Shown here piece after piece: positions 27,001 to 33,000 of a stretch of DNA of 64,000 nt. Position 1 is the first letter of the stretch. Each line of letters opens with the position of its first letter. Origin of the DNA: Escherichia coli (lineage in GTDB: Bacteria; Pseudomonadota; Gammaproteobacteria; Enterobacterales; Enterobacteriaceae); the NCBI RefSeq assembly GCF_024502345.1, contig NZ_JALDNN010000002.1; one strand, given 5' to 3'. A program made the position numbers.

Positions 27001-30000
27001 TGGCTGGTAATATGGCACTGTTGCAAAGTTAGCGATGAGGCAGCGTTTTGTCTTATTCAAAGGCCTTACATTTCAAAAACTCTGCTTACCAGGCGCATTT
27101 CGCCCAGGGGATCACCATAATAAAATGCTGAGGCCTGGCCTTTGCGTAGTGCACGCATCACCTCAATACCTTTGATGGTGGCGTAAGCCGTCTTCATGGA
27201 TTTAAATCCCAGCGTGGCGCCGATTATCCGTTTCAGTTTGCCATGATCGCATTCAATCACGTTGTTCCGGTACTTAATCTGTCGGTGTTCAACGTCAGAC
27301 GGGCACCGGCCTTCGCGTTTGAGCAGAGCAAGCGCGCGACCATAGGCGGGCGCTTTATCCGTGTTGATGAATCGCGGGATCTGCCACTTCTTCACGTTGT
27401 TGAGGATTTTACCCAGAAACCGGTATGCAGCTTTGCTGTTACGACGGGAGGAGAGATAAAAATCGACAGTGCGGCCCCGGCTGTCGACGGCCCGGTACAG
27501 ATACGCCCAGCGGCCATTGACCTTCACGTAGGTTTCATCCATGTGCCACGGGCAAAGATCGGAAGGGTTACGCCAGTACCAGCGCAGCCGTTTTTCCATT
27601 TCAGGCGCATAACGCTGAACCCAGCGGTAAATCGTGGAGTGATCGACATTCACTCCGCGTTCAGCCAGCATCTCCTGCAGCTCACGGTAACTGATGCCGT
27701 ATTTGCAGTACCAGCGTACGGCCCACAGAATGATGTCACGCTGAAAATGCCGGCCTTTGAATGGGTTCATGTGCAGCTCCATCAGCAAAAGGGGATGATA
27801 AGTTTATCACCACCGACTATTTGCAACAGTGCCCTATCCTGCGCCTGAATACTAGATTGTCAGATATGCAGGCAATAATGGAAGAAACACAGGCTTTTGA
27901 AAACCGTGTGCTTGAGCGTCTGAATGCTGGCAAAACCGTCAGAAGCTTCTTGATTGCCGCCGTCGAGTTACTGACCGAGGCGGTCAATATTCTGGTGCTT
28001 CAGGTGTTCCGCAAAGACGATTATGCGGTGAAATACGCCGTCGAACCGCTGCTGGACGGTAGCGGCCCGCTGGGCGATCTTTCGGTCCGGCTCAAGCTTA
28101 TCTATGGGCTGGGCGTGATTAGCCGTCATGAGTATGAAGATGCGGAGCTGCAGATGGCGCTGCGTGAAGAGCTGAACCATGACGGCAGCGAATATGCCTT
28201 CACGGATGATGAAATTCTTGGGCCGCTGGGTGAGCTGCACTGCGTCTCTGCCCTGCCGCCCGCGCCGCTCTTTGACGATAGCGATGCCGACCTGCTGGCA
28301 ATGCAAAAACAGCGCTATCAACAGGTCGTTCGCTCAACGATGGTACTTTCTCTGACCGAGCTGATTTCCCGAATCAGCTTGAAAAAAGCCTTTCAGAAAT
28401 AACACCGTCAAACTTCTTTCGCCTGGTTCTCGACCGGCTGATAAAGTTTGCGGTAGTGTTCTAATCGCTCCAGAAACATCGCCGCTTTCTCTTCCGGGAT
28501 CTCTTCCGGTACGTGACTCAGGCGAGGTGATTTCTTCAGATACTCCATAAATGCCTGACTGGACGCCATAAAATCGACGGCTTTGTCGATGACTAGTGGT
28601 ACGTTTTCGCCAAGTTTGCCCATAACGTCGTCCTCCTCATGATTCCTCTCTTCAGAATGGACAATTAAGGGCGATCCGTTTGAGGAAAATGTGCGGATTC
28701 TCGTGACGGCATGCTAAAAAAGAGATCTGCATAACCATTTCTCTTAAATTACAATAAATTCATGGGATTACTAAGGAAGGTGCGAACAAGTCCCTGATAT
28801 GAGATCATGTTTGTCATCTGGAGCCATGGAACAGGGTTCATCATGAGTCATCAACTTACCTTCGCCGACAGTGAATTCAGCAGTAAGGGGTCTGACGCTC
28901 AGTGGAACGAAAACTCACGTTAAGCGATTGTGGCTGAGAAAAACCAAAGGATCCGGCGAGGATCCTTTGGTGTGCTGACATGACCAGTTTCTTTTGGGAT
29001 ATTTTTTCCCTGCATGAAGTCCTTTATGTCCTGATCATAATGCCATTAAAAATTCTATGCTATGGCTTCGCTATTTTAGACATTCCCTAAGGAAGGTGCG
29101 AACAAGTCCCTGATATGAGATCATGTTTGTCATCTGGAGCCATGGAACAGGGTTCATTATGAGTCATCAACTTACCTTCGCCGACAGTGAATTCAGCAGT
29201 AAGCGCCGTCAGACCAGAAAAGAGATTTTCTTGTCCCGCATGGAGCAGATTCTGCCATGGCAAAACATGGTGGAAGTCATCGAGCCGTTTTAACCCAAGG
29301 CGGGCAATGGCCGACGGCCCTATCCGCTGGAAACCATGCTACGCATTCACTGCATGCAGCATTGGTACAACCTGAGCGATGGCGCGATGGAAGATGCTCT
29401 GTACGAAATCGCCTCCATGCGCCTGTTTGCCCGGTTATCCCTGGATAGCGCCTTGCCGGACCGCACCACCATCATGAATTTCCGCCACCTGCTGGAGCAG
29501 CATCAACTGGCCCGCCAATTGTTCAAGACCATCAATCGCTGGCTGGCCGAAGCAGGCGTCATGATGACTCGAGGCACCTTGGTCGATGCCACCATCATTG
29601 AGGCACCCAGCTCGACCAAGAACAAAGAGCAGCAACGCGATCCGGAGATGCATCAGACCAAGAAAGGCAATCAGTGGCACTTTGGCATGAAGGCCCACAT
29701 TGGTGTCGATGCCAAGAGTGGCCTGACCCACAGCCTGGTCACCACCGCGGCCAACGAGCATGACCTCAATCAGCCGGGTAATCTGCTTCATGGAGAGGAG
29801 CAATTTGTCTCAGCCGATGCCGGCTACCAAGGAGCGCCACAGCGCGAGGAGCTGGCCGAGGTGGATGTGGACTGGCTGATCGCCGAGCGTCCCGGCAGGG
29901 TAAAAACCTTGAAGCAGCATCCGCGCAAGAACAAAACGGCCATCAACATCGAATACATGAAAGCCAGCATCCGTGCCAGGGTGGAGCACCCGTTTCGCAT

Positions 30001-33000
30001 CATCAAGCGGCAGTTCGGCTTCGTGAAAGCCAGATACAAGGGGCTGCTGAAAAACGATAACCAACTGGCGATGTTATTCACCCTGGCCAACCTGTTTCGG
30101 GTGGACCAAATGATACGTCAGTGGGAGAGATCTCAGTAAAAACCGGAAATAACGCCAGAAATGGTGGAAAAAATAGCCTAAATAGGCTGATTCGATGTGT
30201 TTGCGGGAAAAAAATCGGCCCAGATCCGCGAAATTTTAATCAGCGAGTCAGCTTGGGAAGAAATGACCTGCTTATTCGCACCTTCCTTAATATAAAGACA
30301 CAAGCAGAGACATTTTTGGCACGATATAAAAACGCTAAGTTAAAAAATCACTATGACGTGTTGGGTATCAAATGTTCACTGGCATAAACCTCTGTTTCTG
30401 ATGTAAAACAGATTTTCTGAGGAGGCGTAAAACCTCCTCGTACTGCGAAATTGATTTAGTGATAGCGATCGATCACGCCAACCAGATAGTGGTCGGTTTG
30501 CTGCATGTTGATGCCCGCTTTTTTAGCGCTGCGGACTTCATCCAGAATGATTTGCAACAGCGTCCCGTCCACGATTTCCTCTTTTCTGTATCGCTTCAGG
30601 AAGTTAATCGCTGACTTATCGTTTGCTGCCTGGGCGTCTTCCGTCAAAGAGGTCAGCGCATTAATGCGCTTCTGGTAATCGCTTACCGTCTGCTCAAACA
30701 GATCTTCCAGCGTGGAAAATTCACCGCACCGGGCGTGTTGCTCCTGTAACACCGGCGTGGCGCCGCTCTGTTTGATGTATTCGTACATGCGCATCATTTG
30801 CGTCACCGTATTTTGCGCCTGATGACGCAAAAATAGTGCGGTGCCATTAAGGCTATTCTCGCTGCACCTCTGGCTGAGCTGAAGATACAAATTTGAGGTA
30901 TAAAACTCCTGATTCATTTGCGCATTCAGTTTTTGAACTATTCCGCTAGCGATCATAGGACTTCCTTATTTCTTGTCATCTCAGAAAACGGTCACTCTTC
31001 GAAAAAACAACCAGAATAAAAGCGATTCTTTCGCTTTTTTTATTGCGCCTGGTTACACAGTCATATTCATTTTAAGTCGGGATGCTCCTTATTTAAATAT
31101 CCAACCCTACTATCGCATTTCTATCTGGCATTATTCTGTGATGGTGTTTCGATATTCACACTCCCTGTGCCAATCCTTTCTTATCGACAGTAGGAAACTT
31201 CCTCCGGCTATTCTGCTGAACACGATTAGGGGCACTGTTGCAAAGTTAGCGATGAGGCAGCGTTTTGTCTTATTCAAAGGCCTTACATTTCAAAAACTCT
31301 GCTTACCAGGCGCATTTCGCCCAGGGGATCACCATAATAAAATGCTGAGGCCTGGCCTTTGCGTAGTGCACGCATCACCTCAATACCTTTGATGGTGGCG
31401 TAAGCCGTCTTCATGGATTTAAATCCCAGCGTGGCGCCGATTATCCGTTTCAGTTTGCCATGATCGCATTCAATCACGTTGTTCCGGTACTTAATCTGTC
31501 GGTGTTCAACGTCAGACGGGCACCGGCCTTCGCGTTTGAGCAGAGCAAGCGCGCGACCATAGGCGGGCGCTTTATCCGTGTTGATGAATCGCGGGATCTG
31601 CCACTTCTTCACGTTGTTGAGGATTTTACCCAGAAACCGGTATGCAGCTTTGCTGTTACGACGGGAGGAGAGATAAAAATCGACAGTGCGGCCCCGGCTG
31701 TCGACGGCCCGGTACAGATACGCCCAGCGGCCATTGACCTTCACGTAGGTTTCATCCATGTGCCACGGGCAAAGATCGGAAGGGTTACGCCAGTACCAGC
31801 GCAGCCGTTTTTCCATTTCAGGCGCATAACGCTGAACCCAGCGGTAAATCGTGGAGTGATCGACATTCACTCCGCGTTCAGCCAGCATCTCCTGCAGCTC
31901 ACGGTAACTGATGCCGTATTTGCAGTACCAGCGTACGGCCCACAGAATGATGTCACGCTGAAAATGCCGGCCTTTGAATGGGTTCATGTGCAGCTCCATC
32001 AGCAAAAGGGGATGATAAGTTTATCACCACCGACTATTTGCAACAGTGCCGGCAGACGAACTACAGTTGCCGCGGGGCAGGTATTCAACGCTCCAGGTGG
32101 AGCCACTGGCATCCGGGGTACGCCGTCTGGAAGACTGTTATCGCGGGCTGCAGGAAAAAATCGTGCAGCTCGAAGGCAAAAAACGGTCGCAAAAACAGTT
32201 GATTGCTTCACATAAGAATCGTCCTTTTTATCATCTGTGGCACAGAAAAGGGGGCCAGCTCCCGGACGAGAAATGTGATGCCCTGCCCTGCCACTGCGGG
32301 CAGAAACACTGTCTCTGCCGCAGATCGGGGATTCAGACCTGGAGGTGGCGCAACGGGCAACCGGGGTCATCCGGCTGGCTACCCTGTGTGCTCAGTCGCA
32401 GAAAAGAATCCTGGAGCTGGAAAGGGATCTTGCCTCACAAAGTGAGGAGCTCGTTGACCTGCAGGCACATCCCTTTTTTAACCTGTGGGATAAATACCGC
32501 GACCTGATCCTGTTCTGGGGGGCGTGGTGACTTTTCTGGACTTTATCAGTGGATGTTGGGGGCATGAATGTTCCCGTTCCATAGCCACACACTGAAGAGG
32601 ACTGAAACCAGTGCCCGAAAATATCGTGTCTGTAATCACTGACGGGGTAGTTTTGTTTGCGACTTCGTCTGTTTTCTGGCTGGCCGTCGCTGGCTGGTTA
32701 GTCATCCTGACTCCGGTAATATTACGAAGAAAATTCTCGGCAAAGAAAAAAGTTAACAGAAATTATGAATAACCTGGTTCCAGTTGGATCTCCGTCATCT
32801 CCCGGAACATTGCTTCCGGTGGCCATCGATTACCCTGCCGCCCTCGCCCTGCGCCAGATGGCGCTCGTGCAGGATGAACTGCCGAAATACCTGCTGGCGC
32901 CGGAAGTCAGCGCCCTGCTCCATTACGTGCCGGATCTTCACCGCAAGATGCTGCTGGTGACGCTGTGGAACACCGGCGCGCGCATTAATGAAGCGCTCGC

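Follow-up and report, generated by a model that had tools for sequence, protein, structure and literature searches.

The window analysed here is a stretch of 64,000 nt from Escherichia coli (contig NZ_JALDNN010000002.1, assembly GCF_024502345.1), and its backbone is that of a Klebsiella-type F plasmid with RepB and RepE genes. Two copies of the insertion sequence (IS) IS26, called B and C below, enclose a segment at 27834-31230 in which a 5′-truncated mannitol repressor gene (mtlR), a yibT-like gene, relics of IS5-family and Tn3-family elements, and a gene for a ferritin-like protein are lined up. Judged from its junctions and those of related loci, this segment is very probably a junkyard-type mosaic of two blocks with separate histories, situated in a multi-IS region. 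IS26 would have trimmed and joined the blocks, and would now mobilise them, since the invariant borders of the passengers are IS5-family ends and the IS26 borders vary among relatives. A preliminary description of this DNA had regarded the segment as a record of chromosomal DNA captured by IS26. The mtlR-yibT piece is indeed chromosomal, as its high identity to chromosomes with the native lld-mtl context indicates, but these borders speak against IS26 as the captor.

Structure of the IS26-bounded segment

The 14-bp terminal repeat of IS26, GGCACTGTTGCAAA, has eight matches in the window against 0 expected, and these matches define four 820-bp copies (Table 1). The annotated IS26 (WP_001067855.1) of a related locus, L001, matches copy B at 100% identity. 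Copies B and C are identical at 820 of 820 positions and lie in direct orientation, and the 3397 bp enclosed by them are exactly the segment delimited in the preliminary description. The truncated mtlR and the FtnB-like gene reported there were both found again. The IS5 relics are a short remnant in block 1 (27834-28886) and a complete IS5-family copy in block 2 (28887-31230), and the Tn3 relic amounts only to a terminal repeat and its inner stretch. The intact yibT-like gene had not been mentioned.

No 8-bp target duplication is present outside copies B and C (GGTAATAT versus GGCAGACG), so the segment lacks the duplication of a classical compound transposon. Its layout is that of an IS26 pseudo-compound transposon or translocatable unit, potentially of 4217 bp when one IS26 copy is counted with the 3397 bp. 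In the units of this kind described by Harmer and Hall, two identical direct 820-bp IS26 copies likewise surround the passengers, and a missing 8-bp duplication is common. Unlike in those units, the passengers in the window are not resistance genes but relics pre-assembled by IS5- and Tn3-family elements, and movement of the unit is deduced from two contexts only.

Table 1. Features in and around the IS26-bounded segment (positions in the window).
Feature	Position	Strand or orientation	Remarks
IS26 copy A	23997-24816	inverted relative to B and C	820 bp; 14-bp terminal repeats
IS26 copy B	27014-27833	-	820 bp; exact 14-bp terminal repeats; intact tnp26 (open reading frame 27066-27788)
Chromosomal fragment, Pseudocitrobacter faecalis-type	27834-28774		941 bp; right end is a CTAA IS5 target site
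mtlR remnant	27834-28402	+	stop codon 28400-28402; matched frame 27836-28399
yibT-like gene	28408-28623	-	intact, 71 aa; convergent with mtlR; same protein in chromosomal loci
IS5 left-end remnant	28775-28886	+	112 bp; 111/112 identical to the first 112 nt of the copy at 29091
Solitary Tn3-type terminal inverted repeat	28887-28924	+	38 bp; GGGGTCTGACGCTCAGTGGAACGAAAACTCACGTTAAG; transposon interior rightward
Inner stretch beside the Tn3-type end	28925-29090		166 bp; terminator-like hairpin with 12-bp stem at 28943-28971 (-)
IS5-family element, ISKpn26-like	29091-30286	+	1196 bp; transposase 29159-30139; both ends present
Ferritin fragment	30287-31230		169 bp downstream, gene, 274 bp upstream
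FtnB-type non-heme ferritin-like gene	30456-30956	-	intact, 166 aa; NF011597
IS26 copy C	31231-32050	-	820 bp; direct orientation with B
IS26 copy D	61849-62668	inverted relative to B and C	820 bp; 2 mismatches

Origin and borders of the mtlR-yibT fragment

The mtlR remnant matches the Pfam family PF05068 (1.1e-65; 221 bits, cut-off 25.2) and the NCBIfam model MltR, NF008234 (253.8 bits, cut-off 149), the latter over positions 1-170 of 170. Compared with the 196-codon mtlR of Pseudocitrobacter faecalis, it lacks the first 22 nt, with the start codon and 7 codons. Its remaining 188 codons carry one substitution, L114Q (nt 28152), which occurs neither in the seven chromosomal loci described below nor in the aligned mobile copies L002 and L010. 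An in-frame Met at 27866 would yield a product of 178 aa, and this product with L114Q is recorded in four assemblies. The upstream mtlA-mtlD operon context is not present in the segment. The remnant is most likely inert, since it has no start codon, no operon promoter and no recognisable IS26 hybrid promoter, and since it carries a private missense change. A 213-codon read-through frame (27761-28402, plus strand) starts within IS26, antisense to tnp26, and continues in-frame into mtlR; the exact 213-aa product has no record in the assembly collection.

The fragment as a whole shows 99.15-99.58% identity to seven chromosomal loci on contigs of 4.7-4.9 Mb. The native order in these loci is cysE-trmL-lldD-lldR-lldP-yibL-yibT-mtlR-mtlD-mtlA, and the identical 71-aa YibT-like protein is encoded there between yibL (DUF2810) and mtlR. 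An invariant 28-mer of the fragment gave one match among 100,044 species representatives, namely Pseudocitrobacter faecalis DSM 27453 (QNRL01000006.1), and the same contig holds the best-matching chromosomal locus (L006). By these alignments, the donor is identified as P. faecalis or a very close relative. Homology to the chromosome ends at 28774 on CTAA, the preferred target of IS5, and the sequence then passes into nt 1-112 of this element. The YibT-like protein belongs to no family above threshold in Pfam and NCBIfam profile searches; a sub-threshold match to the theta subunit of DNA polymerase III (PF06440, E 1.9e-4, 21.5 bits versus a cut-off of 34.6) was noticed. All plasmid copies of the fragment, including the shortest one, keep the gene intact, and it also adjoins the fixed IS5 border.

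Plasmid searches after the first one were made with IS-free queries. PLSDB contains at least 18 plasmids, from Klebsiella, E. coli and Enterobacter, that carry the fragment at ≥99% identity. Their copies all have the identical right-hand IS5 junction, and the left borders vary (IS5 at 27927, at 27945, and shorter forms); the IS26|27834 junction of the window is in none of them. For example, the Klebsiella and E. coli F plasmids pRHBSTW-00433_3 and pEC316_2 carry the same Pseudocitrobacter-derived fragment at 99.7-99.9% identity with the same right IS5 junction. Copies of this type begin at 27927 or later and run into Tn5403, with an mtlR pseudogene and with yibT beside IS5; in pEC316_2 the relic is annotated as a pseudogene by the Prokaryotic Genome Annotation Pipeline (PGAP). 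In comparison, the window has 93 bp more of mtlR, cut by IS26, and a different Tn3-type end interrupts its IS5 remnant at nt 112.

Three further relatives show how the borders shift. The junction between the IS5 remnant and the chromosomal fragment is common to L002, L010, L037 and L038. L037 is 99.97% identical to 27014-30236 of the window, including the IS26|mtlR and IS5-remnant|repeat junctions, and forms a unit between two direct IS26 copies with outer flanks unlike those of the window. Its second IS26 lies inside the IS5-family element, and the end of this element is deleted together with the ferritin gene. L039 shares the IS26|mtlR junction with the window. In L038 (GCA_025624065.1), another Tn3-family repeat truncates mtlR at 27856, and the fragment is followed by 206 nt of IS5 and then Tn5403. 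Among the mtlR remnants on the mobile elements compared, the one in the window is the longest. Thus, it is not derived from the other forms, and all of them would come from a longer captured fragment. Among the compared copies, the IS5 end must be the sole surviving original border of the captured fragment.

Two side observations concern the transposons next to this relic. At 4880-4976 of L038, the Tn3-family terminal repeat GGGGTCTGAGGGCCAATGGAACGAAAACGTACGCTAAG, which cuts the mtlR relic 22 bp further in, lies beside an arsRDABC operon, suggesting an ars-carrying Tn3-family transposon. In the window, the right end of Tn5403 (terminal repeat and resolvase fragment; Pfam Resolvase 4e-40) is found at 23376-23996, cut by the inverted IS26 copy A. 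Tn5403 adjoins the mtlR-yibT-IS5 remnant in related plasmids, and an IS26 rearrangement may have separated the two in the window.

A widespread FtnB-type gene of unsampled origin

The ferritin-like protein is assigned to NF011597, 'non-heme ferritin-like protein', with 209.9 bits (cut-off 154; 2e-62), and falls under the cut-off of the true non-heme ferritin model NF007638 (97.8 versus 178 bits). The canonical ferroxidase ligands of FtnA (E17, E50, H53, E94, Q127 and E130) were checked in a gap-free alignment to E. coli FtnA (1EUM). E17, Y24 and E126 are retained, and the ligand region carries the changes E49N, E50T, H53Q, E94Y, Q127E, E129V and E130D. The ferroxidase centre is thus lost, as in FtnB. 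FtnB (YecI) of E. coli and Salmonella has the same family, length and loss of ferroxidase ligands, and the window protein is ~45-55% identical to FtnB of other Enterobacteriaceae (E. coli, Salmonella, Citrobacter and Klebsiella). Unlike FtnB (YecI) of E. coli and Salmonella, however, the gene in the window is plasmid-borne and flanked by IS elements.

The exact protein occurs in 9,349 blocks of the assembly collection. Among 10 listed places, an IS5-family transposase stands on one side in all 10 and an IS26-type transposase on the other side in 9. The gene is also present in ~320 PLSDB plasmids, and none of these has an IS5-free version. The junction between the IS5-family element and the ferritin fragment is identical in all loci examined, and the far side of the element adjoins at least four different sequences; in most copies of the module, higBA-like genes follow there. 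The upstream cut of the fragment varies as well (IS26 at 31230 or 31146, IS1 at 31168, or 31112), the IS26|31230 junction being common to most ferritin loci. The module was noted in 2019 on pSIM-1-BJ01, where higA, higB and ferritin are 'flanked by IS26 and ISKpn26' (PMC6657655). This IS26-ferritin-ISKpn26(-higBA) module of pSIM-1-BJ01 and pMS7884A (PMC6657655) encodes the same protein and has the same IS5-family and IS26|31230 junctions. The window differs from it in having a Tn3-type end in place of higBA, and a premature stop codon, Y45*, in the IS5-family transposase; this sub-variant is common to a few Citrobacter and Enterobacter plasmids.

The nearest proteins outside the mobile cluster are 84% identical at the amino acid level (encoded on short contigs of the read archive, Logan) and 75% identical (Atlantibacter). 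A dcu transporter gene follows in both of these relatives, and araFGH precedes in Atlantibacter, which is the position of ftnB. Positions 30323-31156 align with araF-ftnB-dcu loci of the Atlantibacter type at 77% nucleotide identity, flanks included. A chromosomal origin of the gene can therefore be reasonably inferred from its neighbours, and the source found by alignment is firm for the mtlR-yibT fragment only. The donor of the ferritin-like gene appears to be unsampled, because the nearest chromosomal relatives, the FtnB orthologues of Atlantibacter, share only 75% of amino acids.

The Tn3-type end and the IS5-family element

The left part of block 2 carries the Tn3-type repeat. Together with its inner sequence, the repeat has three left neighbours, namely the IS5 remnant in the window and other sequences in L001 and in L004/L035; the two neighbours found elsewhere are a fragment of a rep gene (Citrobacter plasmid) and a hypothetical gene (Klebsiella and Raoultella plasmids). 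Three unrelated sequences to the left of one and the same end mark the repeat at 28887-28924 as a real terminus of a transposon. Over 54 nt, made up of the repeat plus 16 nt of the adjoining interior, identity to Tn2/Tn3 ends on thousands of plasmids is 92.9%, and the full 205 bp from the repeat are found in ~50 plasmids. No partner repeat, tnpA or tnpR for this end is present in the window, where the repeat is unique, and the Tn5403 fragment did not come up in the search for it.

The IS5-family element encodes a transposase of 326 codons (NF033581, 317 bits), whose only defect is a TAA at codon 45 (Y45*, 29291-29293). From this defect, the transposase gene is classed as a pseudogene. The stop is common to the window and L001. 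Block 2 as a whole is 99.96% identical (1 mismatch in 2344 bp) to at least three Citrobacter and Enterobacter plasmids, including Y45*, and those plasmids have another left neighbour at the Tn3-type repeat than the window. No homology between 28925-29090 and the ftnB-dcu intergenic region of Atlantibacter was detected. Further IS5-family copies in the window are two complete ones (968-2163 and 56353-57546) and a solitary end (60909-60924), which makes three complete copies and two partial ends in total. In this plasmid, IS5-family elements match IS26 in prominence and provide many sites for homologous recombination.

Expression signals and function

Native upstream DNA is kept in both blocks, ~150 bp for yibT and 274 bp for the ferritin-like gene. 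The promoter scan revealed no IS26 hybrid promoter before mtlR. A search for Fur and FNR boxes upstream of the ferritin-like gene gave a best score of 12/19, no better than shuffled sequences, and no Rfam family reached its gathering score within 26500-32500. The preliminary description had suggested that a plasmid-borne ferritin could affect iron storage in the host. The loss of the ferroxidase ligands (E50T, H53Q, E94Y and E130D) makes this suggestion weak, as does the upstream region, where Fur-box matches do not exceed chance. Any protein produced would be expected to function in the manner of FtnB rather than as an iron store with ferroxidase activity. In Salmonella, FtnB has been connected with the repair of iron-sulfur (Fe-S) clusters rather than with bulk iron storage, and it is reported, in work by Velayudhan and colleagues in 2007, to contribute to this repair and to virulence.

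Probable assembly of the mosaic

A course of events for the mosaic can be outlined as follows. IS5 would have entered a CTAA site between yibT and yibL in a chromosome like that of P. faecalis, and the mtl-yibT DNA beside it would then have reached a plasmid, a step that we infer from IS5 being the only invariant border. The mtlR side was probably trimmed later by different elements in each lineage, here by IS26, 22 nt into mtlR. Separately, the FtnB orthologue of an unsampled relative of Atlantibacter would have become fixed beside an ISKpn26-like element, mostly also beside IS26 at 31230, and the module of IS5-family element and ferritin-like gene then spread very widely. In the sub-lineage of the window, a Tn3-like transposon end on the other side of this module would have landed in the IS5 remnant of block 1, by which the two blocks were joined. 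IS26 would have come later. It trimmed mtlR, fixed the border at 31230, now brackets the mosaic and supplies mobility, and presumably keeps deleting parts of it, as seen in L037.

Several points count against this outline. Its order of events comes from shared versus variable junctions and was not observed. The 8-bp flanks of the four IS26 copies (n = 8) contain no direct or reverse-complement pair, and the IS5-family element is flanked by CTAA and TTAA, that is, by no target duplication. Since IS26 is without 8-bp duplications and the flanks of the IS5-family element are unequal, single transposition events are not reconstructable. For the Tn3-like owner of the repeat at 28887, the data searched gave no assignment, and neither PLSDB nor the Atlantibacter comparison supported continuity of this end with the ferritin fragment across the IS5-family insertion. 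The ferritin donor is not in the databases searched. In addition, the promoter scan gave 4 promoter-like matches against 3.9 expected from shuffled sequence.

Other explanations fare worse. The region is rich in repeats, with four IS26 copies besides the IS5-family copies and ends counted above, and host chromosomal reads might have been merged into the plasmid at such repeats. This artefact is essentially refuted, because the same junctions are present again in L037, L038 and L039, which are independent assemblies, as well as in PLSDB plasmids. Nor is the segment identical to the host chromosome, as misassembly would imply: chromosomes of E. coli, Klebsiella and Enterobacter match the fragment at no more than 81-85% identity (81.6% for E. 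coli mtlR; 83-85% for the mtl region of K. pneumoniae, K. aerogenes and E. hormaechei). Chromosomal capture of both passengers by IS26 itself, for instance through two flanking insertions that made up a compound transposon, is highly improbable, too. Both passengers now abut IS26 ends, most ferritin loci share the IS26 border at 31230, and L037 presents an IS26-bounded unit in a second context. However, the donors are different (Pseudocitrobacter at 99.6% versus an Atlantibacter relative at 77% nucleotide identity), IS5 and Tn3-type junctions lie between the two passengers, and the conserved borders are of the IS5 family, whereas those of IS26 depend on the lineage and come without target duplications.

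The ferritin-like gene could also be a passenger of the Tn3-family transposon that ends at 28887, with the hairpin at 28943-28971 as its terminator and the IS5-family element as a later insertion. In favour of this, the repeat marks a true transposon end, having three left neighbours, its proximal 54 nt resemble Tn2/Tn3 ends, and a terminator-like hairpin lies on the ferritin strand; we take the layout of block 2 to resemble the bla-proximal end of Tn3, with the bla terminator. Such a passenger is nonetheless unlikely. Most copies of the IS5-ferritin module have higBA-like genes beyond the IS5-family element, the CTAA/TTAA flanks are no duplication, and a joined version free of IS5 is absent from PLSDB, where an artificial join of 28887-29090 and 30291-30700 used as a query met no record across the joint. 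Moreover, no tnpA, tnpR or second repeat is linked to this end. Whether the passengers were retained for their usefulness is a separate matter: the FtnB-like protein, and perhaps YibT and the 178-aa MtlR, might for instance serve Fe-S repair or alter mannitol regulation. The ferritin-like frame is intact, encodes the same amino acid sequence across very many assemblies and keeps its native upstream DNA, and the MtlR remnant retains its whole conserved domain. But recent hitch-hiking beside IS26 and resistance modules fits the identity across assemblies equally well, the ferritin gene was lost in L037, mtlR is cut to differing lengths among plasmids and has a private missense change in the window, and neither a Fur or FNR box nor a hybrid IS26 promoter was found. 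Retention for usefulness is thus quite unlikely. It is very unlikely that the FtnB-like gene in particular is a selected accessory, for example as a donor of iron for Fe-S repair under oxidative or antibiotic stress, perhaps acquired via an undescribed Tn3-like transposon. If true, such a selected function would help explain the presence of the IS5-ferritin-IS26 module in thousands of enterobacterial assemblies.

Surroundings in the plasmid

To the right of the segment, positions 32051-50000 resemble Klebsiella F-type plasmids and include RepB, RepE, a group II intron ltrA, a Y-family polymerase and a UvrD helicase; a tyrosine integrase is encoded at 32765-33559. No PLSDB record covers ≥80% of 32051-50000, and the plasmid as a whole is therefore a new mosaic. 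To the left, IS26 copy B has truncated an IS481-family transposase gene, of which 26625-27026 (minus strand) still encodes the C-terminal 133 aa; the match to NF033577 (2.4e-34) stays below the cut-off because of the truncation. Further left, a nucleotidyltransferase (NTP_transf_2), a HepT-like HEPN RNase and a cupin are encoded as a trio at 25535-26575 (minus strand). In L004 the same trio is found beside a Tn3-family (ISPa38-type) transposase, and in L019 beside mer genes; it resembles an MNT/HepT toxin-antitoxin pair travelling as cargo of a transposon.

Implications

The preliminary observation is correct but ordinary: public annotation or the literature already contains this type of structure as well as the ferritin module and the mtlR relic. 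What the comparison adds is modest, namely a Pseudocitrobacter donor, the classification of the ferritin-like gene as FtnB-type and of unsampled origin, and a reassignment of the capture step away from IS26. The region shows how unrelated chromosomal scraps come to be stacked in plasmid 'junkyards' by elements of the IS5 and Tn3 families and by IS26, and this matters little beyond annotation. For curators, the mtlR-yibT relic on F plasmids of Klebsiella and E. coli would be recorded as coming from P. faecalis or a very close relative. Since the plasmid 'ferritin' is an FtnB-type protein devoid of the ferroxidase centre, it should be annotated neither as an iron-storage ferritin nor as a Dps-like 'DNA protection protein'.

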